Assembly (NCBI GenBank): GCA_036002405.1
Contig: DASYTK010000040.1
Location: 1,299 to 65,298, forward strand
Reading direction: 5' to 3'
Origin: Candidatus Limnocylindrales bacterium
GTDB lineage: Bacteria > Chloroflexota > Limnocylindria > Limnocylindrales > CSP1-4
DNA: 64,000 bases
A program made the position numbers and the translations under genes. Below are positions 25,616 through 63,758 of the stretch, in pieces. How positions within the stretch are numbered: position 1 is the first letter of the stretch; each line of letters starts with the position of its first letter. The notes under the pieces were generated by a model. It saw nothing but the letters and a program-made list of their open reading frames with translations, searched no databases and was not told the origin of the DNA.

Positions 25616-26587
25616 ATGGCGCGCTCGATGTGGCGGGGGGCGATCCAGTTCGGGTTGGTGACGATCCCCGTCCGGTTGTACCTCGCGACCGAGGCGAACG
25701 CCGGGCTCAGCTTCAACCTGCTCCACAAGACCTGCCTGAACCGGATCCAGATGAAGATGTACTGCCCCTACCACGAGGAGTACATCAACCGCGCGGACAC
25801 CGTTCGGGGCTTCGAGTGGTCGAAGGGCGAGTACGTGATCATCACCGACGAAGACCTCGAATCCGTCCCGCTCAAGACGGTCCGCTCGATCGAGATCGAG
25901 TTGTTCGTCGACGCGCGGAAGGATTCGCACGGCGCGCAGTTCGTCAAGCAGGCCTACTACCTCGAGCCCGAGCCGGTCGGCCGGAAGGCCTTCTATCTCC
26001 TGAAGTCGGTCCTGGGCGAGAAGGGCCTCTCGGCGATCTGCAAGGTCGTCATCAAGGACCGCGAGCATCTCGCCGCCCTGAATCCCTACTCCTCGACGAT
26101 GCTCCTCACGAGCCTCTACTGGCCCGACGAGGTCCGCTCGATCGACGAGCTCGAGCTACCCGAGGAACAGCAGGAGTTCCGGGCGGCCGAGCGCAAGATG
26201 GCCGAGCAGCTCGTGGCCGCGATGACCGGCGATTTCACCGCCGACGACTACAAGGACGACTACCGCCAGGCTCTCCTCGCCGTTCTGGAGGCGAAGATCG
26301 CCGGTCGAGCGCCACGCGCCGCCGAGCCCGAGAAGCCGGCCACGAAGCTCGTCGACCTGATGACCGTCCTCGAGGCCAGCGTCGAGGCCGCGAAGGGATC
26401 CCGTCGCGCTCGACCGGCCGAGGCTGCGGCCGATGCGGAGGAGCCCCTCGCCGTCGCAGCGAGTGGCCGACGCGGTCGCGGACGGGCCCAGCCGACGCCC
26501 TCGACGGCTCCCACGAACGGACGCCGCCGGCGAGGAAGCGCGGCTGAGGAGGCCGCCCCGCCGCAGCGGAAGCGAAAGACCGCCTGA
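25616..26587 (+). CDS. ku: Ku protein (NHEJ DNA end-binding)
   Basis: MARSMWRGAIQFGLVTIPVRLYLATE... is the canonical bacterial Ku N-terminus. The tail is Arg/Lys-rich and ends ...QRKRKTA. The ATG at 25616 has GGGAGG upstream. The track ORF start at 25301 was rejected. Confidence 0.9.
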   Translation: MARSMWRGAIQFGLVTIPVRLYLATEANAGLSFNLLHKTCLNRIQMKMYCPYHEEYINRADTVRGFEWSKGEYVIITDEDLESVPLKTVRSIEIELFVDARKDSHGAQFVKQAYYLEPEPVGRKAFYLLKSVLGEKGLSAICKVVIKDREHLAALNPYSSTMLLTSLYWPDEVRSIDELELPEEQQEFRAAERKMAEQLVAAMTGDFTADDYKDDYRQALLAVLEAKIAGRAPRAAEPEKPATKLVDLMTVLEASVEAAKGSRRARPAEAAADAEEPLAVAASGRRGRGRAQPTPSTAPTNGRRRRGSAAEEAAPPQRKRKTA

Positions 26588-26591
26588 GCGC

Positions 26592-27326
26592 GTGCCGTCG
26601 GCGACACGCACGGATGCGAACGGACCCGGCCCCGCCGAGGAGTCCCGCGACCAGCTGAAGCTCGCGATCGAGGAGCGCGGGTCGGCGGGCGCTCCGCTCC
26701 GCGTTCGGCCGATGATCCCGTCCGAGGGCCACGCCCCTTTCGACGATCCGGCCTATCTCTTCGAGCCGTGGTGGCCCGGGAGCCGGGCGTTCCTGGGTGT
26801 CGCGCGCGAGGGCCTGCGCCTCTGGAGCGAGCACCTGGCCGACCCGCTCGAGGTGTTCCCGGAGCTCGCGACGATCGCCGACCAGGCACGCGGCCTGCCG
26901 CTGCTCCTCGAAGGGACCCTGCTCGTCCTCGACCCTGAAGGCCAGCCCGACGCGGAGCTGCTCCGTCGCCGGCTCGAGGGACACGAAGCGGACGTGGGGG
27001 AGCCCGCCTTCGTCGCGACCGATCTCCTCGAAGCCGAGGGCCGGCTCATCGGCGGGCGTCCCCTGGCCGAGCGACGCGACCGACTGGAGACGCTCCTCCC
27101 CGACGGAGAATGGTGCGTCGTCGGGCGGGCCTGGCGCGACGAGGGCCAGGCCGTCGCGGAGGCGCTCGGCTCGATGGGCCTGGAGTGGATGTCCGCCCGG
27201 CGGCTCGACGCCCGTTATCGCTCCGGGCCGGCGGGAGACGACTGGCTGAAGGTGCCGGTCGTGCCGACCGAGCCCCCGGTGCGCCGGCCGATCCTCGCCG
27301 TCATCCAGCGCCTGCCGCTCGGCTGA
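26592..27326 (+). CDS. ATP-dependent DNA ligase-like protein: adenylation-domain homolog with degenerate catalytic motifs and no OB domain
   Basis: Collinear with LigD/LigC NTase-domain motifs:
- Motif I: PFDDPAYLFEPWWPGSRAF, where KxDG is expected.
- Motif III: LEGTLLVLD.
- Motif IV: AFVATDLL.
- Motif V: LEWMSARRLDARYRSG...WLKVP.
The start is either GTG 26592 or ATG 26712. Confidence 0.65.
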   Translation: MPSATRTDANGPGPAEESRDQLKLAIEERGSAGAPLRVRPMIPSEGHAPFDDPAYLFEPWWPGSRAFLGVAREGLRLWSEHLADPLEVFPELATIADQARGLPLLLEGTLLVLDPEGQPDAELLRRRLEGHEADVGEPAFVATDLLEAEGRLIGGRPLAERRDRLETLLPDGEWCVVGRAWRDEGQAVAEALGSMGLEWMSARRLDARYRSGPAGDDWLKVPVVPTEPPVRRPILAVIQRLPLG

Positions 27327-27571: not shown

Positions 27572-27863
27572 CGATTCATCGTGGAGGGGGTGGCTCCACC
27601 GGAAGGCCGGTCGGCGCTATGCGGAGGGGCGCGGCTTTCGTCGCGAATATCAGCTCACGCGCTTCCTTCCGCAGGTCTGAGCGATAAGGGCGGCGCTGGT
27701 TGCCACGTCTCCGATGGCTAATCGCGCGCCCTGACGCGCCAGCAACCCTCGGTGCGCTATGCAGCGACTCAAAGCCCAGAGCTCGAGCCGGGCTGCTGTT
27801 TCGGGGCTGGTCACGGACGGTACGCTTGGGCGAGCTGACCTTGCCCCAGAGGAGGATCGTTCG

Positions 27864-28697
27864 ATGACTGCCGACGTGACACGGATCGCCTCGCGCCGCG
27901 CGATGCTCGCCGCGGGTGCGGCTGGATTGCTCGGGGCGATCGCTCACGCCTTCGCCAGCGCCACCCAGGTGCGCGCCGCGAACGGCGACGCCGTCCTCCT
28001 CGGCCAGACGAACACCGCAACCGAGGTGACGACCGTCCAGAACACCGACGCGTCCGAGTGGGCCTTCGCGGGAATGGGCTCGGACACGGGCGTCGGTCTT
28101 CGCGGCGAGGGCGGCGTGGGGGTATCCGGGTTCAGCGATCTCGGGACGGCCGTCGAGGCGCACAGCAATTCGGGTCGGGCAGTGAACGCCGATTCGGGCG
28201 CCGCCACCGAGCCCGCCGTCCGGGCCCGCTCGCTCGGCTTCAGCTCCGGCGTCCTGGGCTACAGCGGCGTCAGTGGAGCGCAGCCCTTCCCGACCGGCAA
28301 GACCGGTGTCGAGGGCGTGTCCGAGATCGACTCCACGGCCCGCGGCGTCTACGGGCGCTCGACCGTCGGTCGGGGGGTGATGGGCTCCGCGACCACGGGT
28401 ACCGCGCTCTACGCGGTCGCTGCCACGAACGGAACGGCCCTCCGGACGACGCGCGGCCACGTCCGCTTCAGCACGGCCGGGCTGGCCACGATCGCGGCCG
28501 GCACGAACAGCGTCACCGTGACCCCGGGCTTCGACATCTCGTCCGGGTCGAAGGTGCTCGCGGTCCTCCAGGGCAACCCGGGTGCCGGGATCCTCTTCCG
28601 CTTCGTGCGCCGGGACTCGGTGAACGACCGCTTCACGATCTACCTGAGCGGTAACGCGACGGCGAATACACCCGTGGCCTGGTTCGTCATTGGCTAG
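27864..28697 (+). CDS. Tat-signal secreted protein with Gly/Ser/Val-rich beta-strand repeats
   Basis: The ATG at 27864 is preceded by GGAGGA. Twin-arginine signal: TRIASRRAMLAAGAAGLLGAIAHAFA-SA. The mature part has iterated G-x-G-V-x-G/S units. No family recognised. Confidence 0.65.
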   Translation: MTADVTRIASRRAMLAAGAAGLLGAIAHAFASATQVRAANGDAVLLGQTNTATEVTTVQNTDASEWAFAGMGSDTGVGLRGEGGVGVSGFSDLGTAVEAHSNSGRAVNADSGAATEPAVRARSLGFSSGVLGYSGVSGAQPFPTGKTGVEGVSEIDSTARGVYGRSTVGRGVMGSATTGTALYAVAATNGTALRTTRGHVRFSTAGLATIAAGTNSVTVTPGFDISSGSKVLAVLQGNPGAGILFRFVRRDSVNDRFTIYLSGNATANTPVAWFVIG

Positions 28698-38134: not shown

Positions 38135-38259
38135 CGAGCTTCTGCCTCCTGCCCCGTCGGGACGATGTATGTGTACACCATCGCCTCACCTGGGGGGCGG
38201 GTCTCCCCAGCTATCGTCAGGACGTGTGTAAATAGCCGGCTCTGGGCCCGCGAGGGCAA

Positions 38260-39700
38260 AGGAGAACGGCGTACCCTTCCGAGGTCGTTGAAGCCAACAG
38301 AAGGAGCACGCCGCCGATGGAAACCTACCATGCCCTGACCCCGGTCGCCCAGCCCGAGCCGCCTTCCGACGGCACGGCCGATGCGCTGGCCATCGCCTCG
38401 GTTCAGCCGCCTGCCCTGGACACCGACGCCGAGCCCGAACCGAGCGAGCCGCCGGCTGCGATCGTCAACACCACCATCGAGGAGCTGGCCCGCGAGGGCG
38501 CCAGACGCATGCTGGAGCGGGCTCTGGCGGTCGAGGTCGACGAGTTCCTGGGCCGTCCCCGCTACGAGCGTCGCATGCTGGCCGAGCATGGGTACCGCAA
38601 CGGCTACGGCCGCCCGCGACCGGTGGCCATCGGCACCTGGCCGGTCGAGGTCCGCGCGCCGCGCATCCGCGACCTGCCAGACGAGACGCCACCGTTCCAC
38701 AGCGCCATCCTGCCGCGGCGACGGATGCTGTCGGCCGAGACGCAGCGCCTGTTCGCGCGGCTGTACCTGGAGGGTCTGTCGAGCGGAGACTTCGAGCCCG
38801 CTTTCCGCGAGTTGCTGGGCGAGTACGCCACCCTGTCGAGTTCGACCATCCTCAGGCTCAAGGAGGAGTGGTCATCGGAGTACGCCGCCTGGCGGGTGCG
38901 ACCACTGAAGGCCGGGTACGCGTATATCTGGGCGGACGGGATCTACCTCGGCGCCGGGCTCGAGCCCGAGAACTCGTGCCTGCTGGTCGTCGTCGGCGCC
39001 CGCGAGGACGGCCGCAAGGAGCTGCTGGCCATGGAGCTCGGCTACCGCGAGAGCACCCAGTCGTGGGCTGGTGTACTGCGCGGCCTGAAGGCACGCGGCC
39101 TCGAGGCGCCGCTGCTGGCCTGTGGCGACGGCGCGCTCGGGCTGTGGGCCGCGCTCGACGAGGTGTACCCGGGCACCCGTCACCAGCGCTGCTGGAACCA
39201 TCGCGTGCTGAACATCTTGGACAAGGTCCCAAAACGGCTGTGGCCCGACATCCGCCGTCGGCTGCGTGACGTGTGGAGCGCCGAGAGCCGGGCCGAGTGC
39301 GAGCTGCGACGCGACGGGCTGCTGCGCTGGCTGGAGGCCCACGGTCAGCTGGCCGCGGCCGACACGGTGCGCCGCGACTGGGACGACTTTGCCACCTTCT
39401 ACGACTTCCCGGCCGAGCACTGGATCCACCTGCGCACGAGTAACCCCGTTGAGTCGCTGTTTGCCGGCGTGCGGCTGCGCACCGACGTCGCCAAGCGCAT
39501 GCGGCGCCGCGAGAATGCCCTCTACCTCGTATTCAAGATCGCCCAGCGCCTGGAGCACTCCTGGCGCCCACTCAACGGCGGGCTCACGATCATGACCCTG
39601 CTGCTCGGTGGTGCCCGGTTCGTCGATGGGGTCTACGTCCCAGAGGTGAAGGAGACGTCAGCCGCCTGAGCGCGGTCGGAGGCCAGCGGCGGAAGGAGCA
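38260..39700 (+). mobile_element. IS256-family insertion sequence (ends approximate)
   Basis: The transposase fills the space between the aldehyde dehydrogenase promoter region and the RBS of the hydrolase gene. I could not identify convincing terminal inverted repeats or target duplications by eye, so the boundaries are guesses. Confidence 0.35.
38317..39669 (+). CDS. IS256-family (mutator-type) transposase
   Basis: 450 aa. WADGIYL..., CLLVVVGAREDGRKELLA..., QRCWNHRVLNILDKVPK... and ...RTSNPVESLFA are hallmark IS256/Mutator DDE segments. Confidence 0.9.
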   Translation: METYHALTPVAQPEPPSDGTADALAIASVQPPALDTDAEPEPSEPPAAIVNTTIEELAREGARRMLERALAVEVDEFLGRPRYERRMLAEHGYRNGYGRPRPVAIGTWPVEVRAPRIRDLPDETPPFHSAILPRRRMLSAETQRLFARLYLEGLSSGDFEPAFRELLGEYATLSSSTILRLKEEWSSEYAAWRVRPLKAGYAYIWADGIYLGAGLEPENSCLLVVVGAREDGRKELLAMELGYRESTQSWAGVLRGLKARGLEAPLLACGDGALGLWAALDEVYPGTRHQRCWNHRVLNILDKVPKRLWPDIRRRLRDVWSAESRAECELRRDGLLRWLEAHGQLAAADTVRRDWDDFATFYDFPAEHWIHLRTSNPVESLFAGVRLRTDVAKRMRRRENALYLVFKIAQRLEHSWRPLNGGLTIMTLLLGGARFVDGVYVPEVKETSAA

Positions 39701-52526: not shown

Positions 52527-53828
52527 TCAGGCCAGGAGCCGTTCCGGCAGATAGGCCCGGTGCGCTGCCGCCATCTCGTCGTAGAGGCGCTCAGCCACGT
52601 CGAGCGAGAGGACCCAGGGATGTGCGGCGAGCGCTCGCACCGCGTCGCGCCGGGTTCCGTGCCAGGCGGCGTCCGCGGTCAGCCGCTGGTACTCGGCGAG
52701 CATCTTGATCAGGCCTGAGACGTGGCCCGGCAGCGGTGGCGACGGTTCGGGATGGACTCCCGCCCGATCGACCCGGGCGAAGATCTCGACGACGAGGTCG
52801 TCGTCGAAGCCGGGCAGCGCTCCCCGGTTCGGGGTGTTCACGGGCAGCACCTTCCCCAGATCGTTGAACAACGAGTCCATCGCCTCGAGGGCGAGCTCGA
52901 GCTCGAAGATCCCGCCCCGGGAGCGGCCAGGATTGAGCTGGGGGTCCTCCGAGTTTGCCTGCTCGGCATAGTGCTCCCAGTAGCCCGCTGTCCAGGCGAG
53001 GATGTCCTCCGCCCGCGTCGTCGGCTTCGCCCGGAGCTCTTCGACGATCTCGTCGCGGAAGTAGTAGTAGCGCAGGTACGTGGCCGGAATCGCGCCCATG
53101 ACGGCGGCCAGCTTGAGGAGCCGCCGTGCGGGGGAGGCAGGCTCGGCCCGTGCGGCCATCTCCTCCCAGGCGGCCTCGACGAGCGGGATGGGGTCCTGCC
53201 CGTCGTACGTCGCCTCGACCGACCATGTCGTGTGGTTCAACCCGACCATCCGGGCCGAGATCTTCTTCGGGTCCAGCCCGGCCGCGACGGCGAGCTCGCG
53301 CGGGAAGTCGTACGTGCCCTCGCAGAACGACGTGAACGGGATCGGCGAGTGTCGGCTCGCCGCGTCGGCGAGGATGTTCACCGGGTTCGTGTAGTTGAAG
53401 ATGCGGGCTCGCGGTGCGACGGCCTCGAGATCGTCCGTGATCGCGCGCAGGACGTGGATCGAGCGGAGCGCCATGAAGAACCCGCCCGGCCCCTGCGTCT
53501 CCTGGCCGATGATCCCGTGGCGGAGCGGGATCCGCTCGTCCTGGATGCGGGCCTCGAAGCCCCCGGGCCGGTACGAGGAGAGGACGGCGTCGACGTCTGT
53601 CAGCCCCGCCCGGCGGTCAGTCGTGGCGCTGAAGCGAAGGTCGAGCGCGCGAGCCGCGGCCATCCGCTCCGACAACCGCCGGATCAACTCGAGCCGCTCG
53701 GGCACGAGGTCGATGAGCACGACCTCCGAGCCCCCGAAGTTCGCCCCGTGGTTGTGGATGAAGCCAGCCATCGTGCCGGCAGCCCGGGTCGATCCACCGC
53801 CGACGTACGCGAGCCTGATCGCGGCCAC
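52527..53828 (-). CDS. Glycoside hydrolase family 4 (NAD/Mn-dependent glycosidase)
   Basis: It has an N-terminal Rossmann IRLAYVGGGSTRA, the NYTNPVNIL segment, and an overall length typical of GH4. Confidence 0.8.
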   Translation of the reverse strand: MAAIRLAYVGGGSTRAAGTMAGFIHNHGANFGGSEVVLIDLVPERLELIRRLSERMAAARALDLRFSATTDRRAGLTDVDAVLSSYRPGGFEARIQDERIPLRHGIIGQETQGPGGFFMALRSIHVLRAITDDLEAVAPRARIFNYTNPVNILADAASRHSPIPFTSFCEGTYDFPRELAVAAGLDPKKISARMVGLNHTTWSVEATYDGQDPIPLVEAAWEEMAARAEPASPARRLLKLAAVMGAIPATYLRYYYFRDEIVEELRAKPTTRAEDILAWTAGYWEHYAEQANSEDPQLNPGRSRGGIFELELALEAMDSLFNDLGKVLPVNTPNRGALPGFDDDLVVEIFARVDRAGVHPEPSPPLPGHVSGLIKMLAEYQRLTADAAWHGTRRDAVRALAAHPWVLSLDVAERLYDEMAAAHRAYLPERLLA

Positions 53829-53829
53829 C

Positions 53830-54657
53830 TCACTCTCCCTTCACTGCACCGGACAGGAATCCGCGGATGAACTGGCGCTGGAGGACCGCGTAGGCGAGGA
53901 CGACTGGGAGCGCGACGAGGACGGCGGCAGCGGCGACGACCGTCTGGTCGGTCGTTCGTTGCGAGCCCGCGAAGAACGTGAGCGCGAGGGGCGCGGTCAG
54001 GAGTGTCCCGCGCGGGTTCATCACGAGGGCCAGGAGGAAGTCGTTCCAGGTGTACATGAACAGGAGCACGGCGAGGGTGAGGATCGCGGGTACCGCCTGG
54101 GGGACGAGGATCCCGACCAGCGTCCGCAGGTGACCCGCCCCGTCGACCCGGGCCGCCTCGATGACCGACCGCGGCGCCGAGCGGAAGAACGCGCGCATCC
54201 AGAACGTGCCGAGGCAGACGGAGACCCCGATCTGGGGAAGGATCAGGGCGGGGTAGGAATCGGTCAGCCGCGCCGCCCGGAAGATGTGGTAGAGCGGGAT
54301 GACGAGCGACTCGTAGGGGATGATCAGGCCGCTGACGAGGACATAGAAGATCAGGGTCGCGCCCGGGAAGCGCATCGTCCCGAGGGCATAGCCTGAGAGG
54401 ACGGACAGGACGACCGATGCGAGCACGACCGTCGAGGCGACGATCGCGCTCGTCAGCAGCCCGTCACCGAAACGACCTTCCGTCCAGGCCCGCCCGAAGT
54501 TGTCGAGCGTCGGCTGGCTGGGGATGGAGAAGCCCGTCACCGGCTCGTTCCTCCGGTGGAAGGCGAGCAGGACGATCGAGACGATCGGGTAGACGGCGAG
54601 CAGGCTGAAGGCCGCGAGGATCAGATAGGTCGCCCCCCGCTCGAGTCGGACCGTCAC
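53830..54657 (-). CDS. Carbohydrate ABC transporter permease (MalG-like)
   Basis: The GTG start overlaps the upstream permease stop (GTGA). EAA-loop region IEAARVDGAGHLRTLVGILVP. The track ORF to 55101 is an overlapping extension. Confidence 0.8.
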   Translation of the reverse strand: MTVRLERGATYLILAAFSLLAVYPIVSIVLLAFHRRNEPVTGFSIPSQPTLDNFGRAWTEGRFGDGLLTSAIVASTVVLASVVLSVLSGYALGTMRFPGATLIFYVLVSGLIIPYESLVIPLYHIFRAARLTDSYPALILPQIGVSVCLGTFWMRAFFRSAPRSVIEAARVDGAGHLRTLVGILVPQAVPAILTLAVLLFMYTWNDFLLALVMNPRGTLLTAPLALTFFAGSQRTTDQTVVAAAAVLVALPVVLAYAVLQRQFIRGFLSGAVKGE

Positions 54658-55598
54658 CCGGCTGCCTCCGACTCCTGGCCCCGCTCCCCGAGGCGGGTGA
54701 TCACGATCGTGACCACGAGGATGACGGCGGTCAGGATGACCGCGATCGCGGCGCCCGCCCCGATCCGCCGCGCCTCGAAGCCGAGCTGGTAGAGCAGGAC
54801 GGCAGGCACCGCGGTGGCATCGCCGGGGCCGCCGCGCGTCGCGACCCAGACGAGGTCGAAGTTCCGCAAGGCGAAGATGACCGTGATCGTGAGCGCCACG
54901 AGGATCTCGTTCCGCAGCCCGGGCAGGGTTACCGCGAAGAACTCGCTCACCGGCCCCGCCCCGTCGACTCGCGCTGCGTCGTAGAGGTCGAGCGGGATCT
55001 TCTGGACGCCGGCCACGAAGAGCACCATGCAGAGCCCGAAATTCACCCAGGTGCCGACCAGCCCGACCGCCGGCAGCGCCCAGGTGAAATCGCCCAGCCA
55101 CGCTCGTGTGAGCCCGTCGAGGCCGACCAGCCGGAGGAGCTCGTTGAGGGCGCCGTTCCGGCTGTAGATCCAGCTCCAGGCGATCGCCACGACGACCATC
55201 GCCACCGTCTGGGGCAGGAAGAGGAGGACGCGGAAGGCGCGGATGCCCCGGATCGGGATCCGCGACAGGAGCGCGGCGAGGAGAAGCCCGATCCCGACCG
55301 GGATGAGCGAATAGAAGCCGACCAGGATGAGCGAGCGGACGAAGGCGAGATAGAGTCCCGGATCGCTGACGATGTCGGCGTAGTTCCGCGGCCCGATGAA
55401 CACGGCCGCCCCCACGCCGTTCCAGCGTGTGAAGGAGAGCCAGACCGTGTTGACGAAGGGATAAAGCCCGAAGACCGTGAAGAAGAGGAGCGAGGGAGCG
55501 GCGTAGGCGAGGCCAACGAGACGCGGCTCGCCGGGCGGAGCGCTTCCGCGAGCCGCGTCCGCCGTGCTAGCGAGAATCCTGGAACTTGGCCCAATCAT
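54654..55598 (-). CDS. Carbohydrate ABC transporter permease (MalF-like)
   Basis: EAA loop YDAARVDGAGPVSEFFAVTLP and 6 TM. The start overlaps the SBP gene by 32 nt and no alternative canonical start was seen. Confidence 0.8.
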   Translation of the reverse strand: MIGPSSRILASTADAARGSAPPGEPRLVGLAYAAPSLLFFTVFGLYPFVNTVWLSFTRWNGVGAAVFIGPRNYADIVSDPGLYLAFVRSLILVGFYSLIPVGIGLLLAALLSRIPIRGIRAFRVLLFLPQTVAMVVVAIAWSWIYSRNGALNELLRLVGLDGLTRAWLGDFTWALPAVGLVGTWVNFGLCMVLFVAGVQKIPLDLYDAARVDGAGPVSEFFAVTLPGLRNEILVALTITVIFALRNFDLVWVATRGGPGDATAVPAVLLYQLGFEARRIGAGAAIAVILTAVILVVTIVITRLGERGQESEAAG

Positions 55599-56955
55599 CC
55601 TGGACGGTCTGGACGAACTCCTCCGGCGACTTCTGGCCGCCGATCAGCTCCTGGAGCGACTTTGTGATCGTGTCGAACATCGTGTCCGTCGCCCAGTCCT
55701 GGTAGTAGATCAGCCCGTCGTCCTGGGCGATCCGCGTCCAGGCATCGAGAAGCTGTTGCGTCACCTTGTCGTCCGGCTTTGCGGTCACCCCGGCGGCGGC
55801 CGCGATCCGGCCGTGCTTGAAGTACACGTCGCCCTTGTCCGGGGCCATAACGAAGTCGAGGAAGGCAGCGGCGAGGTCCTGGTTCTTCGAGCGGGCCGAG
55901 ATGTGGAAGGGGAGGCTCAGGGCGGCCACGGCCACGACTTTCCCGGAATCGCCGGGCGGCGGGGCGATGAAGCCGACCGCGTCCTCGCCCATCGCGTCGC
56001 GCAGCCCGGCGGCGAGCCAGCTTCCCGCGATGAGGAACACGCCGTCGCCCTGGGCGAACTCCGCCCAGGCGGTGTCGTACTTCAGGCCGTTCGCATCCTC
56101 GCTCAGGTAGCCCTTGTCGACCCAGTCCTTGAAGGTCTTCGCTGCCTCCAGGTTCCCGGGTGCCGTGTAGTCGGCGCCTTCCTTGCCGAAGACCCAGTCG
56201 CGGATCTCCTGGGCCGACCAGGTCGCGCCCTGCGCGATCCCCAGGTCATGGGTCGCGGGCCAGCCCTCCAGGTTGCCCAGCTTGATCGCTAGCTGGCCCT
56301 CGCTCTTCGCCTTCTCGAGGGCAGTCTCGAAGTCGGCGAAGGAAGCGGGTGGCTCGACTCCGATCGCGGCGAGCTTGTCGACGTTGTAGTAGATGCCCAC
56401 GAAGTCCGCCGACTCGGCGATGCCCCAGATCGACCCCGTCCCGAATGTCTTGCCGTCATCCGAAAAGCGGAACTGGTCGGTCGTCGCCGCCCCGTACCAA
56501 GCGGTCCAGCCGTATGCGTCGAAGTACTTGTCGAGCGGCACGATCAGGCCGCCGGACACCAGCGCGCCGTCGGTCACGTACCCCTGGTTGCCGAGCAGGA
56601 TATCGGGCGCGTCCTCCGAGTCGGCGACGTTGAGGACCGTCTTCATGTAGTCGTCGAACGACTTGAAGTCGAGCTGCACGGTGATGTTGGGGTAGCGCTC
56701 CATCCACCGGCCGGCGAGCTCGGTGAGCGTGTCCTTCGAGGCGTTCTCGGCGTTGACCCGGAGCGTGACGTCGCCGATCGACTCCCAGCCCTCGGTCTTG
56801 ACGCCGGGCGCCGACGCCGGAGCCGATCCCCCGGTTTCCGCCGACGTCGGACCGCCCGTCGGGCTGCCCCCCCCGACGCAGGCGGCCGTCAGCAGGACGA
56901 CGCTGAGCAGAACGCTCGGGGCGGCGCGCCACGGCCGGCGTAGGCGGGATTCCAT
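55567..56955 (-). CDS. ABC transporter extracellular solute-binding lipoprotein (sugar type)
   Basis: It has a signal peptide with lipobox LLTAAC and is a 462-aa family-1 SBP-like sequence. Confidence 0.85.
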   Translation of the reverse strand: MESRLRRPWRAAPSVLLSVVLLTAACVGGGSPTGGPTSAETGGSAPASAPGVKTEGWESIGDVTLRVNAENASKDTLTELAGRWMERYPNITVQLDFKSFDDYMKTVLNVADSEDAPDILLGNQGYVTDGALVSGGLIVPLDKYFDAYGWTAWYGAATTDQFRFSDDGKTFGTGSIWGIAESADFVGIYYNVDKLAAIGVEPPASFADFETALEKAKSEGQLAIKLGNLEGWPATHDLGIAQGATWSAQEIRDWVFGKEGADYTAPGNLEAAKTFKDWVDKGYLSEDANGLKYDTAWAEFAQGDGVFLIAGSWLAAGLRDAMGEDAVGFIAPPPGDSGKVVAVAALSLPFHISARSKNQDLAAAFLDFVMAPDKGDVYFKHGRIAAAAGVTAKPDDKVTQQLLDAWTRIAQDDGLIYYQDWATDTMFDTITKSLQELIGGQKSPEEFVQTVQDDWAKFQDSR

Positions 56956-57012
56956 GGTCCAGTCCTCCTCGGGTCACGGATGGGCAGCCTGAAGGCAAGT
57001 ACCGTACCGCCG

Positions 57013-58086
57013 ATGAGCCTCTTGTGGCGGGACACGGTCGCGATGCCCGATGCGATCGAGCGGACACTCGTCGCGCGCGATGGCGTCGACGCGGTCGTGG
57101 CCGAGCTGCGGGATGCTCGCACGCGGCGCATCGTGGCCTCCGGCAACGGCGCCGCCTGGTACGTCTCCCATGCGCTCTGGCTGGCATCGCTGGAGGGAGT
57201 GCCGCCGACCGCTCCTCTCATCTCCCTGCCGGCCGGGGCCCTCGCCGGCGGGCGATTCCGGTGGCGGGCTGGTGACGTCCTGCTCGCGGTGTCGACGAGC
57301 GGCGAACTGCGCGACCTGATCGATGTCGTCGACGTGCAGGCGGGGACGGACGGTCCCGACCGGACGGCCCTGATCACCGCCACGCCGAACTCCTCGCTCG
57401 CGCGTCGGGCGACAGCGGTGGCCACGACCCGGCTGGCCGACCCTGCCGCCTTCACGCACAGCCAGGCGTACGTTTCGAACGTCGCCCTGGGACTGCTCAT
57501 CCTTGCGGAAACCACAGCCGACCGCGGGCTCGCGCGGCTCGTCCGCAGGACGCCGGCCGCTGCGGCGGAGGCGGTCCAGGCGGTCGAGGCCTGGTCCGTG
57601 GAAGCGGACCCGTCGAACAGTGGATCCCGACCGGACGTTCCGCGCTCTGTCACGGTGTTCGGGAGCGGGCCCGCCTGGGCGGCCGCCCTCGAGGCGGCGC
57701 TCCTGCTCCGCGAGGTCGGACGCCTCGCGGCGGAGGGGACGGAAACGCGCGAGGCGGCTACATCCTCGATGTTCGGCCTGGGACCCGCCGATCTCGTCGT
57801 GAGCCTGCCGATCGCCGGAGATCGCTGGCTCGACGAGGCCGAGCGGACCTGCGCCGGCACCGGCGCGCGGGTCGTCCGGATCCCGGGCTCCGGTCGCGCC
57901 GACGCCCGGCTCGCCCCGATCCTCGCCTTCCCAGGATCGGTCCACCTCTCGATCCGTTTCGCCGAGCTCCAGGGCCTGGACCCCGACGCGCCCGAGACGG
58001 CGACGGCGTACTACGCGACGGCGCGCCGGGTGGCCCCGGGACCGGGGGCGTCCGGGGCGGAGGGTGATGCCGCGCGGAGTGGTTAG
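57013..58086 (+). CDS. SIS-domain sugar phosphate isomerase/deglycase-like protein (two SIS repeats)
   Basis: IVASGNGAAWYVSHALW and a second SIS-like half are present. It is divergent from the sugar ABC operon. Start set at ATG 57013. Confidence 0.7.
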   Translation: MSLLWRDTVAMPDAIERTLVARDGVDAVVAELRDARTRRIVASGNGAAWYVSHALWLASLEGVPPTAPLISLPAGALAGGRFRWRAGDVLLAVSTSGELRDLIDVVDVQAGTDGPDRTALITATPNSSLARRATAVATTRLADPAAFTHSQAYVSNVALGLLILAETTADRGLARLVRRTPAAAAEAVQAVEAWSVEADPSNSGSRPDVPRSVTVFGSGPAWAAALEAALLLREVGRLAAEGTETREAATSSMFGLGPADLVVSLPIAGDRWLDEAERTCAGTGARVVRIPGSGRADARLAPILAFPGSVHLSIRFAELQGLDPDAPETATAYYATARRVAPGPGASGAEGDAARSG

Positions 58087-58850
58087 TCGACCAGGCGCTG
58101 TGTCTGGAGGCGCGGTGGCGCGACGCTGGCCGGGACGACGAGCACCCACTTCCCGGCCAGGGAGGGCGCCGCGACCGGGACGCCATCGGAGCCGATCGGG
58201 CGGCGTCGGCGGGGGATGAAGGAGGCGCCCAGGGTCTCGAGCGTCAGGCTGGTTCCGGGCTCGGGGCTCCGACCCCAGGTCGTGCTGTGGCGTGGATAGA
58301 GCGGGTCGAGCACCCGCGCGTGCGTGACGCGGAACTCGTCGGTCGCCAGCGGGTCGGCCGTTGCGGTGAAACCGCTCATCACCCACGCGTGCCGGCCGCC
58401 CCAGACGAGAAGCCCGACCGGCTTCCCGGTCACCCGGATCGCCCGGGCGGCCGCACGTGTCGCGGCCTCAAGCGTGCTGAAGCCGGCCACGCGATAGGGT
58501 CCGTAGCCCAGCTCGTTGAGCCCGAGCGACCAGCCGCGGACCGACGCTCCTTGCCGGCCGGGCCGCACCGGGATGCTCCGGAACGAGCGAGCCAGCAGCC
58601 AGAGACGGTGCTGGGTCTCGGCGGTCCGGTCGTCCCGCGCGGCGATGATGTTGATCATCATCTGCATGCTCGCCCCCACGCACTGGACGAGGTTCGTCTG
58701 GGCGACGAAGTCGCCTGAGCGGTAGAGATCGAGCTCGTAACCGGGGGCGGCCGCGACCCGCCCTGCCGGGGTGCCGGCGACCGCGGCGACGGCCAGGACG
58801 AACGCGACGAGCGCCGAGCCAAGCGGCTCGCGACGGCGGCGGTCGATCAC
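58083..58850 (-). CDS. Secreted papain/C39-like putative cysteine peptidase, paralog 1
   Basis: It has a signal sequence, then Q-x5-C (AQTNLVQCVGASMQMM) and GRHAWVMSGF. It is clearly homologous to 60350..61312 and 61477..62280. Confidence 0.65.
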   Translation of the reverse strand: MIDRRRREPLGSALVAFVLAVAAVAGTPAGRVAAAPGYELDLYRSGDFVAQTNLVQCVGASMQMMINIIAARDDRTAETQHRLWLLARSFRSIPVRPGRQGASVRGWSLGLNELGYGPYRVAGFSTLEAATRAAARAIRVTGKPVGLLVWGGRHAWVMSGFTATADPLATDEFRVTHARVLDPLYPRHSTTWGRSPEPGTSLTLETLGASFIPRRRRPIGSDGVPVAAPSLAGKWVLVVPASVAPPRLQTQRLVD

Positions 58851-58975
58851 GGCGGAGAAGGATACGGCCGGAGGGCGTACGCGGCCCCCCGCCCCGATTA
58901 CGCTTGAGGTGCCCTGATCCTCCAGCCTTCCCCTCCCCCATCCCTGTCGCGCGCCGGCCCGTCGACGGATCGGCC

Positions 58976-60337
58976 GTGACGATCCTCCGGGCCCTCCTCA
59001 CTCGGTTCGTCCCGCGCGGGGCGATCCTCCTCTCGGTCCTGACCTTCGCGAGCTACGTCATCGGGCTCCTGCGAGACCGGATCTTCGCGCGGACGTTCGG
59101 GGCCGGGCACGAGCTCGATGCGTACAACGCGGCCTTCGTCCTGCCAGAGCTGGCGCTCGACGTGCTCGTCGCCAGCGGGCTCGCGGCGCCCTTCGTTCCG
59201 ATCTTCCTCCAGCTTCGCCACGACGATGAGGGGGCGGCCGTGGCGTTCGGCCAGACGATCCTGACCGGGGCGGTCATCGTCATGGGCGCCACGGCGGGCG
59301 TCCTGTTCGTCCTCGCCCCCCTGACCAGCTCGCTCATCACGCCCGGGTTCGACGCCTCGCAGCGGGAGCTCTACGTCTCGCTCTTCAGGGTGATGCTCGT
59401 GACGCCGATCATCTTCGCCGCCTCGATCGCCCTGGGGGAGGTTCTCGTCGCGCAGCGTCGCTTCCTCTTCTACGGGCTTGCTCCCCCGCTCTACAACGGG
59501 GGGATCATCCTCGGGACCGTCCTGCTCAGCGGCAGCCTGGGGATCTTCGGGCCGGCCGTGGGGGCGGTGATTGGCGCCCTGCTCCACCTCGGCATCCGCC
59601 TCGTGGGGATCCGGCGGACGGCGTTCCGCGTCCGTCCCCGCCTGGCCCTGCGGACGAGAGCCGTGGTCGAGTTCCTCCGCCTGATGATCCCGAAGATGGC
59701 CAGTCACCCGATCGAACCGTTGACCTTCCTCTTCTTCACGTCCCTGGCCACAACGCTCGGCGCCGGCAGCGTGAGCTCCGTCAGCTTCGCCCGCAACTTC
59801 CAGAGCGTGCCCGTCAGCCTGATCGGCATTTCGTTCTCGCTCGCGGCATTCCCCGCGCTCGCCGCCGCCTTCGTGGCCGGCGATCGGAGGCGCTTCACCG
59901 GGATCGTGGCCGCGAACGCCGTCACGATCTCCGTCCTCACGATCGGGGCCGCCATCGGACTCTTCCTCGTGGCCCGGATCGCGATCGAGCTCTTCCTGGG
60001 GGGCGGTGCCTTCGACGCCGAGGACATCGCCCGCACCTCGCTCGTCCTCTCGGCCTTCGCGGTATCGGTGCCCTTCGAGAGCCTGAGCCACCTGCTCAGC
60101 CGCGCGATCTACGCCACGCGGAACACGCTCCTGCCAGTCGGGGCGTCGATCTGCGGCTTCGCGCTCACGGTCGCGGCCGGGCTCTGGCTCGCGCCTCAGG
60201 TCGGCATCACGGCGATCCCCCTCGCGTTCGCGCTGGGGAGCGCGCTCAAGCTCGGGCTCCTCGCCCTTGCGCTCGTGCCTCGCATCCGGCTCGTGGGCGC
60301 GACCGCCGAGCGACCCGACCTCACCGAGGCGCTCTGA
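58976..60337 (+). CDS. murJ: Lipid II flippase MurJ (MviN family)
   Basis: ILLSVLTFASYVIGLLRDRIFARTFGAG...ELDAYNAAFVLPE... is the canonical MurJ N-terminus, with 14 TM-like segments. The GTG at 58976 is preferred over the track start at 58904. Confidence 0.85.
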   Translation: MTILRALLTRFVPRGAILLSVLTFASYVIGLLRDRIFARTFGAGHELDAYNAAFVLPELALDVLVASGLAAPFVPIFLQLRHDDEGAAVAFGQTILTGAVIVMGATAGVLFVLAPLTSSLITPGFDASQRELYVSLFRVMLVTPIIFAASIALGEVLVAQRRFLFYGLAPPLYNGGIILGTVLLSGSLGIFGPAVGAVIGALLHLGIRLVGIRRTAFRVRPRLALRTRAVVEFLRLMIPKMASHPIEPLTFLFFTSLATTLGAGSVSSVSFARNFQSVPVSLIGISFSLAAFPALAAAFVAGDRRRFTGIVAANAVTISVLTIGAAIGLFLVARIAIELFLGGGAFDAEDIARTSLVLSAFAVSVPFESLSHLLSRAIYATRNTLLPVGASICGFALTVAAGLWLAPQVGITAIPLAFALGSALKLGLLALALVPRIRLVGATAERPDLTEAL

Positions 60338-60349
60338 AGGACGGCGGCG

Positions 60350-61312
60350 CTAGCGGTGTGAGGGGACGGGGATCGTGGGGACGAGGACGATGAACCGGCT
60401 GTCGCGGTCCGGATAGAGCCCCTCCGGTCGCTTCCAGGGCAGGAAGTTCCGCTCCATCTCGGCCGCGTCCTGGAACGTGGCCGGCGGGTCCGAGGGTCCC
60501 CAGATGCTCGACACCCAGGGATACCAGGGGTCCAGAACGTACGTGCCGCTGACCGTCGCGTCGGGGAAGATGCTGGGATCGGCGTCTGCCCGGTAGCCCG
60601 TCATGACCCAGGTGTGGGCGCCGCGCCAGGCGATGAGGATGACCGGCGCCCCCGTCTGGGTCAGCGCAGCCGCGGACCCCCGCAGCGCGTCGGCGCGGGA
60701 GTCGTAGGCCCGGATCTCGTAGCCCTGTGCACCGTACGCATCGAGCGCCTCGACCATGGCCGCGGGTCCCCAGCCGCCGTTGTGGCTGTCCTCCCAGCTC
60801 TCCCATTCGCCGATCCGGCTCACGAGCTCGTTCTGGAAGCGCTCCGAGGTGTCGCCGTGGCCCAGGATCGTAAGCACCATCTGGACGCCCGCCGGCGCGC
60901 ACCACTCCTTCGTCAGCTCGTGGGCGAAGACCGACTCCGGGTTCGCCACGATCTGGAGGTCGACCGGCTCCCGGACCGGCTGCGCTGAGGGTGTCGGCGA
61001 GGAGGATGGGGTCGGGCGGGCGGTCTCCGGGCCTGCCGACTCGCTCGGCGGGCCGCTCGCAGGCGGTTCGGAGGTGCGCTCCGCAGGCGTCGCGAGGCTG
61101 GGCGCTGGAGTGATCACGACCGTGCGGCGCGTCGGTCGATTCGGCGGCGGGTCGATCGCGAGCTGGATCCGGTCGAGCACGTGGTCGTAGCGGTCGCCCA
61201 CGCCGAAGGCGTTCGTCCAGATCGCCCCGAGGCCCAGGGACGCGACGACTAGGAGGCCCAGCGCGGCGATCCGCGCGCGATGGCGCGGCCTGCGATTGCG
61301 CCGCTCGACCAT
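60350..61312 (-). CDS. Membrane-anchored papain/C39-like putative cysteine peptidase, paralog 2
   Basis: Start set at MVERRNRR (61312). It has a TM anchor, a Pro/Ser/Thr linker, then KEWCAPAGVQMVL and GAHTWVMTGY. The track ORF to 61651 overlaps the divergent paralog 3. Confidence 0.65.
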   Translation of the reverse strand: MVERRNRRPRHRARIAALGLLVVASLGLGAIWTNAFGVGDRYDHVLDRIQLAIDPPPNRPTRRTVVITPAPSLATPAERTSEPPASGPPSESAGPETARPTPSSSPTPSAQPVREPVDLQIVANPESVFAHELTKEWCAPAGVQMVLTILGHGDTSERFQNELVSRIGEWESWEDSHNGGWGPAAMVEALDAYGAQGYEIRAYDSRADALRGSAAALTQTGAPVILIAWRGAHTWVMTGYRADADPSIFPDATVSGTYVLDPWYPWVSSIWGPSDPPATFQDAAEMERNFLPWKRPEGLYPDRDSRFIVLVPTIPVPSHR

Positions 61313-61476
61313 CGGGCGCAGGGCGAGGCCGCTTCGGGGAATCACGCCGGTTCGACCTGATCGGGACGTAGCTGGAGCTCCTCCGATCGCTGCCTGGGGT
61401 CGGTCCCGCCGGAGCATACACAGGGGGCGGCGCTCACCATGCCGGCAAGCCTGGTCGGGCGGAGAATCAGCGGGAG

Positions 61477-62280
61477 ATGGGCATCCCAGGACGCATGCTG
61501 CCGCCGGTGGTTCCGCTCGTCGCCCTGGCGCTCGCCGGCGCGATCGTCGGCGGCTCCGGCCGCGACGCGCTCGCGGGCTCCGAGCGGGCCCCGGCGACGG
61601 CCGCCGGGTTGAGCCCCCCTGCCGCCGGGGGCCGCCGCGCGCTCGATCCACCGCCCCGGCCGGGTCCGTTCGGGATCGACCTCTACCGTGGCGGTGACTT
61701 CGTCTCCCAGGCGACGCCGGACTGGTGCGTGGCGGCTTCGATGCTCACGATGATGAACATCGTCGACGAGGGCGCCGACCACTCGACGGCAAGGCAGCGG
61801 AGGCTCTACGACCTTGCCCGAACGCGCTCGACGTGGCGACTCGTGGGACCGGGCGCCGAGCCGGAGGGCTGGGCTCGCGGTCTCGACGCGCTCGGCTATG
61901 GGCCGTACGCCGTGCACGTGGATGACACGCGCTCCGGGGCGATCAGGACGGCCGCGCGGGCCCTGCGCATGACGGGCCGCCCGGTCGGTCTCCTGCTCTG
62001 GCACGGTGCCCACGCCTGGGTGATGTCCGGCTTCGAGGCCACCGCGGATCCGGCCTACACCGACGACTTCGCGGTCACGGCCCTGTCTGTCGAGGACGCC
62101 TGGTACCCGCGGATCAGCTCGGTCTGGGGGGCGTCGCGACCGCCGGACACCCTCGTCCCGCTGGAGGCCCTCTCGGAGGCGTACTTACCCTGGCGACGCC
62201 CCAGCGTCCGCTATCCGGAGAAGGACGGCTTGTTCGTGCTCGTCCTGCCGATCGCCGAGGCGCCGGCCCGGCTTCGCTGA
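61477..62280 (+). CDS. Secreted papain/C39-like putative cysteine peptidase, paralog 3
   Basis: It has a signal sequence, then SQATPDWCVAASMLTMM and GAHAWVMSGF. It is collinear with paralog 1 along the whole domain. Confidence 0.65.
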   Translation: MGIPGRMLPPVVPLVALALAGAIVGGSGRDALAGSERAPATAAGLSPPAAGGRRALDPPPRPGPFGIDLYRGGDFVSQATPDWCVAASMLTMMNIVDEGADHSTARQRRLYDLARTRSTWRLVGPGAEPEGWARGLDALGYGPYAVHVDDTRSGAIRTAARALRMTGRPVGLLLWHGAHAWVMSGFEATADPAYTDDFAVTALSVEDAWYPRISSVWGASRPPDTLVPLEALSEAYLPWRRPSVRYPEKDGLFVLVLPIAEAPARLR

Positions 62281-62300
62281 TCGCTCCTCCCCGGCCCCGG

Positions 62301-63758
62301 CTAGTCCCGGAGCACGCCCCGGAGACAGGAGCGGGCGGCGTGCCAGCCGCAGAGGCCGTGCACCCCGGTCCCAGGCGGCGTGGACGACGAGCAGATGAAG
62401 ATCCGAGGGTCGGGCGTCCGGTAGGGATCGACGCGGAGCGCCGGGCGGGTCCAGAACTGCCGGAGGTCCTGGAGGCCGCCCGTGATGTCGCCCCCGACCT
62501 CGTTCGGGTTCTCCCGCTCGAGGTCGGCCGGCGCCCGGCTTGCCAGGCCGATGATCCGCCCCCGCATGCCGGGGGCGAAGCGTTCGATCTCGTCGAGGAT
62601 CGCCTCGGTCATGTCGGCGGTCGAGCCGTTCGGGACGTGGCAGTAGGCCCAGACGGTGTGCCGACCGGCGGGCGCGCGCGAGGAGTCGAAGAGCGAGGGC
62701 TGGGCGAGGAGGACGAAGGGCCGCCGGGGCAGGCTCCCCCGGCGAACGGCATCCTCCCCCGCCGCGATCTCCTCGAGCGTGCCGCCCAGGTGGACGGTGG
62801 CCGAGCGGAGGATCCGCTCGTCGCTCCAGGGGATCGGGCCGTCGAGCGCGAGGTCGAGCTTGAAGACACCGGACCCGTGGCGGTAGCCGTGGAGCTGGCG
62901 GACATAGCGCCGGCCGAGCCGGCCGCGGGACAGCCGCTGGCCACAGATCGAGACGAGCTGGCGGGGCGTCACGTCGAAGAGCGCGGCCCGGTGATCCGGA
63001 AGATCGTCGATGCGCTGGACCCACCGCCCGGTGACGATCTCGCCGCCGAGGTCGACGAGGTGCCTGGCGAGTGCGTCGGCGATCCGCTGCGAGCCCCCTT
63101 CCGCGATCGGCCAGCCGACCGCGTGAGCGCTGCCGAGGAGCAGGAGGCCGAACGCTCCGCTCATCGGCTCGGAAAGTCGAAGCATCGAGTGAGCCGCGCA
63201 GCCGGCGAGGAGCGCCCGGGCCTGCGGAGTCCGCAGGCCGCGACACAACCGCGTGACCGGCTGGATCGCGCGGATCCCGAACGCGGCCGCGGCGAGCGCC
63301 TTCCGGGGATCGAGCGGCACCCGGAACGGTCCCGAGAGCTCGCCGAAGAGGAGCTCCCACTGACGGACCACGGGGGAGATCAGATCCCGGTAGGCACGAC
63401 GGTCGGGACCCAGTGAGCCCGCCGTCTCGTCCACGTCGCGCACCACGAACCCCGTCTCGTCGTCGTCGAGCGGGTGGGCCAGCTGGATCTCCGGCTCGAC
63501 CCAGCGCAGGCCCAGCCGCCCGAGCGGCAGCTCGCGGAAGAACGGTGACGAGCGGGCGAGCGGGTGGACCGCGCTGCAGACGTCGTGAAGGAAGCCGGGC
63601 AGCGTCAGCGCGGCCGAGCGACTCCCACCGCCGATCGTTTCCGCGCCTTCGAGGAGCCTGACGGATCGGCCTTCCCTGGCGAGCCCGATCGCCGCCGCCA
63701 GCCCGTTCGGGCCTCCGCCGACGACGACCGCGTCGACCGAGCGACCAGCGCCGTCCAT
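62301..63758 (-). CDS. Phytoene desaturase-family NAD(P)/FAD-dependent oxidoreductase
   Basis: The start at MDGAGRSVDAVVVGGGPNGLAAAIGLAREG gives a dinucleotide-binding N-terminus. CrtI-like length (485 aa). The upstream part of the track ORF was rejected. Confidence 0.8.
   Translation of the reverse strand: MDGAGRSVDAVVVGGGPNGLAAAIGLAREGRSVRLLEGAETIGGGSRSAALTLPGFLHDVCSAVHPLARSSPFFRELPLGRLGLRWVEPEIQLAHPLDDDETGFVVRDVDETAGSLGPDRRAYRDLISPVVRQWELLFGELSGPFRVPLDPRKALAAAAFGIRAIQPVTRLCRGLRTPQARALLAGCAAHSMLRLSEPMSGAFGLLLLGSAHAVGWPIAEGGSQRIADALARHLVDLGGEIVTGRWVQRIDDLPDHRAALFDVTPRQLVSICGQRLSRGRLGRRYVRQLHGYRHGSGVFKLDLALDGPIPWSDERILRSATVHLGGTLEEIAAGEDAVRRGSLPRRPFVLLAQPSLFDSSRAPAGRHTVWAYCHVPNGSTADMTEAILDEIERFAPGMRGRIIGLASRAPADLERENPNEVGGDITGGLQDLRQFWTRPALRVDPYRTPDPRIFICSSSTPPGTGVHGLCGWHAARSCLRGVLRD

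Follow-up and report, generated by a model that had tools for sequence, protein, structure and literature searches.

Does the flippase MurJ work together with an exported cysteine peptidase-like enzyme in some bacteria? The question is raised by a locus at positions 58083-62280 of a 64,000-nucleotide stretch of contig DASYTK010000040.1 from a Candidatus Limnocylindrales bacterium (the whole stretch is called the window below), where a gene for a MurJ-family protein stands among the genes for three related exported proteins, named P1, P2 and P3, with a papain-like arrangement of cysteine and histidine residues. MurJ, the main flippase for lipid II, is also a target of antibiotics, and few proteins are known that physically partner it at the outer membrane face. 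In relatives of this bacterium, a P2-type gene is kept beside murJ while the flanking genes change, a sister clade keeps the same kind of domain fused to MurJ, and a locus has either the one arrangement or the other; this combination argues strongly for a shared function, and cooperation of the enzyme with the flippase is very likely. A natural MurJ fusion and a gene pair in sister lineages constitute a clue of the Rosetta-stone type, which points to a direct coupling of precursor export with the cutting or transfer of a peptide in one bacterial class or more, and MurJ with P2 is a concrete protein pair for testing.

The original prediction, made from the DNA sequence of the window, had three open reading frames (orfs) bracketing murJ, and the orf list of the window verified their coordinates, strands and order, with murJ between P1 and P2:

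58083-58850, minus strand: P1, exported papain-fold (C39-like) cysteine peptidase paralog of 255 amino acids, P1-type lineage

58851-58903: divergent intergenic region of P1 and murJ, reaching 58975 if murJ starts at the GTG of an independent gene call (453 amino acids)

58904-60337, plus strand: murJ, standalone MurJ-family (MOP superfamily) flippase of 477 amino acids, or 453 from the alternative start at 58976

60338-60349: gap of 12 nucleotides between the stop codons of the convergent murJ and P2

60350-61312, minus strand: P2, membrane-anchored C39-like cysteine peptidase of 320 amino acids, P2-type

61313-61476: divergent intergenic region of P2 and P3, from the orf coordinates

61477-62280, plus strand: P3, exported C39-like cysteine peptidase of 267 amino acids, P3-type

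The minus-strand orf of P2 extends to 61651; its start was taken at the ATG at 61312 because an independent gene call (P0401, 320 amino acids) uses this codon and the lengths of orthologs agree with it.

Conservation of the murJ and P2-type gene pair

Nine standalone MurJ orthologs with 61-75% sequence identity to that of the window (L083-L086, L089, L091 and L107-L109) all have a P2-type gene convergent and directly downstream (9/9), with a product 50-66% identical to P2. When the starting point was two P2-type proteins encoded on long contigs (L110 and L111), murJ was found tail-to-tail with both, 6-7 nucleotides away. The total is eleven standalone murJ loci out of eleven with a P2-type partner, all from Limnocylindria where the lineage is named, and the other flanking genes vary from locus to locus. 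The two stop codons are 6-16 nucleotides apart in the window, L083, L109, L110 and L111, that is, in every locus with both genes cleanly called. A metagenome scan with MurJ found 18 loci, seven of them close relatives, and a partner is present in all five that have downstream sequence (four tail-to-tail P2-type genes and one co-directional gene, L088). No terminator-like hairpin was found at the murJ/P2 junction (60338-60349) in a scan of 57900-62500, so the convergent transcripts probably overlap, and the tight tail-to-tail junction may be a regulatory feature.

A functional tie to murJ had been proposed for the locus as a whole, and the P2-type pairs together with the MurJ fusions described below bear it out. 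Paralog by paralog, linkage in relatives holds for P2, which is kept beside murJ, but not for P1, which was seen beside murJ in no other locus examined, nor in general for P3, which elsewhere lies next to murJ and P2 only in L084, where the murJ-P2-P3 order of the window is repeated; P3-type genes are mostly located away from murJ.

The position of P1, which is unique to the window, and the location of most P3-type genes away from murJ are what one would expect if the proteins were general secreted proteases, serving nutrient acquisition or protein maturation, and if their proximity to murJ were inherited synteny without functional meaning; likewise, Peptidase_C39_2 members elsewhere are single-domain peptidases, the specificity of which is not known (PMC10318531). 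Synteny of this kind is at odds with a pair that persists at every one of the 11 loci among otherwise changing neighbours, with a translational fusion that is retained across a whole MurJ clade with its catalytic residues intact, and with the complementary absence of the P2-type gene from fused loci, and this explanation, which was already disfavoured, is scarcely probable.

Fusion of the peptidase domain to MurJ

A scan of GTDB representative genomes found 385 relatives, and the loci of the best 80 of the 385, those most like P3, were analysed. A MurJ homolog is encoded directly upstream on the same strand in 18 of the 80, and 16 of these 18 consist of a single orf of approximately 740-800 codons. 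The MurJ and peptidase parts are in different frames in L060 and L063, and there is a frame break inside MurJ in L020 and L067; sequencing errors are suspected in all four. L088, L104 and L105 are also fused. Independent pipelines call the fusions as single proteins of 758 and 767 amino acids, and lengths of 737-772 amino acids occur in 11 of the nearest 120 MurJ clusters. Frameshift or assembly artefacts were considered as a source of the fusions and rejected, since the fusions occur in many assemblies of separate projects, in independent gene calls and in 11 protein clusters. In public annotation the proteins of 737-772 amino acids (P0368, P0301-P0386) are named only "MurJ". In three full-length fusions and one truncated fusion, Pfam recognizes MurJ N-terminally and no other domain; the last ~290 residues are blank to it, and the architecture is therefore invisible in standard databases.

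From its N-terminus onward, the fusion comprises MurJ up to its last helix, an arginine-rich loop, an extra hydrophobic helix, the conserved sequence ATLAVxPxVTPWAR, a Pro/Ser/Ala linker and the peptidase domain. The C-terminus of MurJ is cytoplasmic in solved structures (N-in/C-in), and one extra helix after it would therefore place the fused domain outside the membrane, on the same side as the anchored P2. This predicted extracytoplasmic topology, which draws on the N-in/C-in topology of MurJ, the extra helix and the positive-inside rule, agrees with the export that had been proposed for P1, P2 and P3 on account of a signal peptide or N-terminal anchor on each. A Kyte-Doolittle scan identified one N-terminal hydrophobic segment in each protein, preceded by basic residues, and the Pro/Ser/Thr linker that had been noted in P2 is present as well:

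58770-58826, minus strand: P1 hydrophobic segment, residues 9-27, preceded by RRRR, a signal peptide or membrane anchor (Kyte-Doolittle)

61205-61285, minus strand: P2 N-terminal transmembrane helix, residues ~10-36, preceded by an arginine-rich stretch (hydropathy and model helix 10-36)

60968-61150, minus strand: P2 Pro/Ser/Thr-rich linker, residues ~55-115, joining the anchor to the catalytic domain (sequence and model)

61495-61551, plus strand: P3 hydrophobic segment, residues 7-25, a signal peptide or anchor (hydropathy)

In the structural model of P2, the linker has a predicted local distance difference test score (pLDDT) of 64-87 by block, and a two-residue strand is its only regular secondary structure.

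The fused MurJ proteins form one clade (25 fused sequences within a most-recent-common-ancestor clade of 27). Their peptidase domains also form one clade, located inside a broad P3-like group and not sister to P3 of the window. No P2-type gene was found downstream of the fused loci. The fusion could have arisen when P2 was lost from a murJ-P2-P3 order, an attractive idea that remains a conjecture, as the fused domains are not sister to P3 of the window.

Additional paralogs near murJ recur in L048, L069, L075 and L068. In the first three (L048 5667-6236, L069 5500-6201, L075 5584-6159), a divergent paralog that is 35-41% identical to P3 and belongs to a separate clade immediately precedes the fused murJ in the same orientation. 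In L104 (5522-7410) and L105 (5744-7659), the two fused loci that were looked up, divergent genes for an OmpR-type response regulator and a HisKA kinase are the direct upstream neighbours of murJ, with a trypsin-like protease and MsrA encoded further upstream.

Fold and catalytic residues of the family

P1, P2 and P3 are true paralogs. The three orfs had been predicted to align over about 200 amino acids, and do so in their C-terminal ~200 residues with 29-49% identity (P1 and P3, 49%; P1 and P2, the most distant pair, 29%, with a BLASTP E value of 1e-19, far beyond chance). All three contain [QE]-x5-C, G-x-H-x-W-V-M, A-[TD]-A-D-P and D-[PA]-[LW]-Y-P...W-G, in keeping with the shared cysteine and downstream histidine and aspartate motifs of the original prediction, in which two of the cysteine motifs were listed in swapped order: SQATPDWC belongs to P3 (61477-62280) and HELTKEWC to P2 (60350-61312). 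The glutamine that papain-clan enzymes have six residues before the cysteine is found in P1 and P3, but P2 has glutamate at this position. The predicted catalytic residues are:

P1, minus strand: C57 at 58680-58682, H154 at 58389-58391 and D182 at 58305-58307, with Gln51 at position -6

P2, minus strand: C138 at 60899-60901, H233 at 60614-60616 and D261 at 60530-60532, with Glu132 at position -6

P3, plus strand: C84 at 61726-61728, H179 at 62011-62013 and D207 at 62095-62097, with Gln78 at position -6

P2 passes the Pfam model Peptidase_C39_2 (PF13529) with 26.0 bits against a cut-off of 24, and among 77 diverse relatives 17 match Peptidase_C39_2 (E<=0.01), two match DUF3335 and two match Peptidase_C70. 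Neither the bacteriocin-processing C39 family (PF03412) nor phytochelatin synthase (PF05023) has a match in P1-P3 or the 77 relatives, no NCBIfam family was found for P1-P3, and PHROGs had none either. A likeness to NlpC/P60 had been suggested too and is not supported, as the 77 relatives have no Pfam match to NlpC/P60 (PF00877) or CHAP (PF05257) and no structure of either type is among the top 50 PDB fold matches of the P2 or P3 model.

AlphaFold models of P3 (pLDDT 85, core >90) and P2 (pLDDT 88.6) have the papain fold. A cysteine at the N-terminus of a helix and a histidine at the start of a strand are the canonical papain layout; in P3, C84 opens helix 84-96 and H179 opens strand 179-188, and in P2, C138 opens helix 138-149 and H233 opens strand 233-242, with an invariant aspartate at the end of the partner strand in both models. 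When the two models were compared with the PDB by Foldseek, papain-fold enzymes headed both lists down to an E value of about 0.5. The matches of P3 are the phytochelatin-synthase-like Alr0975 (E=1e-3, TM-score 0.49), UfSP, a C39-like protein of B. anthracis (3erv) and staphopains. The top match of P2 is the C39 double-glycine peptidase domain of 6mpz, a peptidase-containing ATP-binding cassette (ABC) transporter, or PCAT (E=2.7e-4, target TM-score 0.62), followed by UfSP, staphopain, Alr0975 and the PCAT1 domain; the entries 7n87 and 8vp5 are also PCAT matches of P2. Among viral models, those nearest to P3 are phage lysins, including mycobacteriophage Lysin A. A sequence search of the PDB with a profile of the three paralogs gave only a marginal match to Alr0975 (E=0.05), covering the cysteine motif and following helices in the N-terminal half; a profile of the 77 relatives was weaker still, and a P2-type profile matched only low-complexity linkers.

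Across 231 relatives in five clades, the cysteine (229/231), the histidine (230/231), a loop aspartate (228/231) and the strand aspartate (217/231) are near-invariant. The spacing from the histidine to the strand aspartate is 28 residues, which is long. Position -6 is glutamine or glutamate family-wide, with glutamate in some P2-type proteins, P2 included, and in 19 of 19 fused domains. The papain-clan, C39-like assignment of the original prediction is thus upheld by the Pfam matches, the models and the conserved residues: P1, P2 and P3 are papain-fold (clan CA) cysteine peptidase-like enzymes of an uncharacterised family at the edge of Pfam Peptidase_C39_2. They are predicted to be catalytically competent, and the retention of cysteine, histidine and aspartate is, judged from the alignments, the pattern of a working enzyme.

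This retention is what speaks against a non-catalytic or self-processing regulatory module that senses wall peptides and gates MurJ. Such a role would suit the long, flexible linker and the resemblance of the fusion to mycobacterial MurJ/MviN, in which an extra helix likewise leads to a C-terminal domain outside the membrane, for which a part in regulation has been suggested. With the cysteine, the histidine and both aspartates retained in 19/19 fused and 13/13 P2-type sequences, a purely regulatory module is very improbable.

Proposed function and cargo

The window murJ product is a strong, full-length match to Pfam MurJ (PF03023; E=1.7e-62, 211.9 bits against a cut-off of 27.4), and its orthologs are named MurJ by NCBI. 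Five cavity residues are essential in the MurJ of E. coli (R18, R24, D39, R52 and R270). Of these, R24 and D39 are invariant in the alignment with the window MurJ, and an arginine is found one position before R270.

A reasonably probable function for the C39-like extracytoplasmic cysteine enzyme is that of a MurJ partner acting on the peptide of lipid II or on nearby peptidoglycan. The P2-type enzyme, separate and N-terminally anchored, would be held beside MurJ by co-assembly on the outer face of the membrane. In the fused clade, a fifteenth transmembrane helix and a flexible Pro/Ser linker would tether the P3-like domain to the MurJ C-terminus and keep the active site next to the point where MurJ releases its cargo. 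Acting there as an endopeptidase, carboxypeptidase or transpeptidase, the enzyme might cleave or transfer the peptide part of lipid II that has just been flipped, or of peptidoglycan close by, so that the wall would be remodelled or stem peptides edited at the exit site of the precursor. P1 and P3, as further unlinked paralogs, would have related substrates in the wall; wall hydrolases typically occur as several paralogs in one genome. A lipid II or peptidoglycan peptide as the substrate is deduced from context, being indicated indirectly by the MurJ-family partner, the phage-lysin fold matches, the multiple paralogs and the listing of Peptidase_C39_2 as a catalytic domain of endolysins (PMC8223927).

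Several observations count against this proposal. In the Pfam search that had been suggested for the family, P1 and P3 have no model above threshold. The best fold matches are distant (E values of about 1e-3 to 3e-4, target TM-scores of about 0.5-0.64), and the family is therefore placed in a separate branch of the C39-like group. The glutamate in place of the oxyanion-hole glutamine, in P2 and in every fused domain, could indicate chemistry beyond simple hydrolysis. The murJ/P2 pair is not an operon, because convergent genes cannot share a promoter, and MurJ homologs of 47% identity or less have no family member within 5 kb, from which it follows that the link is clade-specific. The TIGR01695 equivalog score of the window murJ product (222.8 bits) is slightly under the cut-off of 235.55, R18 and R52 of E. 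coli MurJ correspond to tyrosine and leucine and neither is conserved, and a peptidoglycan precursor as the cargo is assumed from membership in the MurJ family.

The last of these points invite the alternative that the MurJ-family protein flips another lipid-linked glycan or glycopeptide, such as a secondary wall polymer or an S-layer glycan precursor, and that the peptidase processes the product or a protein acceptor. Besides the equivalog score and the two replaced arginines, one could cite the weak matches of several MurJ orthologs to Polysacc_synt_3 and a Polysacc_synt gene 4 kb from one fused locus. The alternative is decidedly unlikely in view of the strength and full length of the Pfam MurJ match, the invariance of R24 and D39 and the NCBI names, and the pair is not accompanied by any conserved glycosyltransferase or polysaccharide cluster.

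The glutamate raises another alternative, namely that the MurJ-tethered domain is a transpeptidase, an analogue of sortases or L,D-transpeptidases, which would form a thioester with a peptide and hand it to, or receive it from, the stem peptide of newly flipped lipid II, resulting in surface-protein anchoring or unconventional cross-linking. This residue replaces the oxyanion glutamine in all fused and some P2-type members, the solved fold nearest to P3 is that of a dipeptidyl transpeptidase resembling phytochelatin synthase, in which a gamma-glutamyl peptide gives rise to an acyl-enzyme, a tether at the exit of lipid II suits an enzyme that uses lipid II, and papain-fold acyltransferases exist, for example BtrH (PMC10318531). 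However, P3 and P2 resemble phytochelatin synthase no more closely than they do ordinary peptidases, no donor-substrate genes are conserved nearby in the loci examined, and nothing in the sequences separates transfer from hydrolysis. The transpeptidase is considered unlikely, and as little weight is given to a new lipid II-directed cysteine transpeptidase, paired with or fused to MurJ, that acts on the stem peptide just as the precursor is flipped. If it were true, Limnocylindria would possess a flippase-coupled route of cross-linking or surface anchoring unlike those of penicillin-binding proteins, L,D-transpeptidases and sortases.

Comparison with known systems

For a C39-like partner of MurJ as preferred here, the nearest known family is Peptidase_C39_2, with which P1-P3 share the papain fold and the order Cys...His...Asp, and P2 and many P2-type orthologs pass its model. 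The differences are that P1, P3 and all fused domains fall below its threshold, that 28 residues separate the histidine from the strand aspartate, and that position -6 may be glutamine or glutamate. The family has been noted near transporter genes, and a 2023 survey of papain-like proteins mentions C39_2 members only as single-domain peptidases (PMC10318531). No description was found in the literature searched of a C39_2 member paired with or fused to MurJ, nor of any pairing or fusion of MurJ with a C39, papain-like or cysteine peptidase, and no cell-wall information for the class was found in the literature on Limnocylindria and peptidoglycan. The family is a new branch, for the most part without annotation, of a known enzyme type, and its conserved association with MurJ, as a pair or as a fusion, seems not to have been described.

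The C39 domains of PCATs are N-terminal and cytoplasmic, on ABC exporters. Those of LahT, PCAT1 and ComA resemble the present family in that they are the best solved-structure match of P2 and in that a C39-type peptidase is built into a membrane transporter and processes the cargo there. In contrast, the domain described here is C-terminal, is predicted to lie outside the membrane, belongs to a MOP-family flippase with an assumed lipid-linked muropeptide cargo, and has no PF03412 match; PCAT C39 domains cut double-glycine leader peptides before export (PMC10318531).

The MurJ fusions share their plan of a core, an extra helix and an outer domain with the mycobacterial MurJ/MviN protein (Rv3910). 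The latter consists of a MurJ core, an additional transmembrane helix and an extracytoplasmic C-terminal domain, and its extension comprises a cytoplasmic pseudokinase and a carbohydrate-binding-like outer domain, with no peptidase. The fusions, on the other hand, are without the kinase-like part and have kept a catalytic triad.

FtsEX with CwlO, RipC or PcsB is a membrane complex that places and controls a papain-superfamily wall hydrolase, of the NlpC/P60 or CHAP type, by non-covalent contacts. The likeness to these hydrolases, and to cysteine-peptidase lysins of phages, is that of a membrane machine directing a wall cysteine peptidase, and lysins are the nearest viral folds. The hydrolases governed by FtsEX nevertheless belong to another branch of the superfamily, of which no NlpC/P60 or CHAP match was found here, and are bound as non-covalent partners.

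Alr0975 of Nostoc (MEROPS C83) is the best sequence-profile and fold match of P3, and the two have a common F-x-x-Q-x5-C-x-x-A-S...M-x-L-N motif at the nucleophile. The profile match is marginal (E=0.05) and located in the N-terminal half only, and the present family has no match to PF05023.

Distribution and history of the family

A profile search returned 993 clusters at 50% identity (E<=1e-3), which makes the family moderate in size, and 510 homologs were found for P3. The best 80 of the 385 GTDB relatives are all from metagenome-assembled genomes of Chloroflexota, except for one bin labelled Acidobacteriota. The closest relatives of all four proteins of the locus are from metagenome-assembled Chloroflexota, those with a named class being Candidatus Limnocylindria, in which the family is common. 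Clusters of distant members yielded neither names nor a taxonomy. A precomputed match to PF13529 is on record for many P2-type orthologs, and a few have been named "C39 family peptidase" by NCBI. The link to murJ is confined to this one class of Chloroflexota, and the hosts are uncultured.

It had been proposed that the family was locally expanded, which is misleading. P1, P2 and P3 each resemble proteins of other assemblies (56-75% identity) more than they resemble one another, and therefore represent three old, separate lineages, so that the locus is a gathering of old paralogs. A recent tandem duplication as the origin of P1-P3 was rejected on the same evidence. P1-type relatives are 50-59% identical to P1.

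Same-strand tandem pairs of P3-type genes occur in L071 (5772-8627) and L080 (6984-8621), with no murJ nearby. The same peptidase domain is fused to ankyrin repeats in P0131 (512 amino acids), and two other family members carry PKD domains.

Other features of the window

The G+C content of the region is approximately 70-75%. The two divergent promoter regions that had been proposed, between P1 and murJ and between P2 and P3, are real in their geometry (58851-58903 and 61313-61476), but the scan of 57900-62500 found no sigma-70-type promoter consensus in either divergent intergenic region, and this consensus is ill-suited to an organism of such G+C content.

Just upstream of P1, at 52527-58086, are genes for a GH4 glycosidase, a sugar ABC transporter (a binding protein and two permeases) and a GlmS/NagB-like protein with an SIS domain, which together may be an amino-sugar uptake unit. 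The SIS-domain gene was considered as a conserved partner of murJ and rejected; the SIS protein encoded near murJ in L083 is barely related to it and not an ortholog.

The remainder of the window is ordinary chromosome, encoding the Lhr helicase, CarAB, M16 peptidases, transporters and an IS256-type transposase, and no further wall genes were found among these other genes. Two adjacent orfs of 320 amino acids on the plus strand (26364-27326 and 27735-28697) have a coding-like G+C content at third codon positions, have no Pfam match and are mutually unrelated (BLASTP E>3). The Mutator/IS256-family transposase gene (38236-39669, plus strand; Pfam E=1.9e-56) is located amid housekeeping chromosome.

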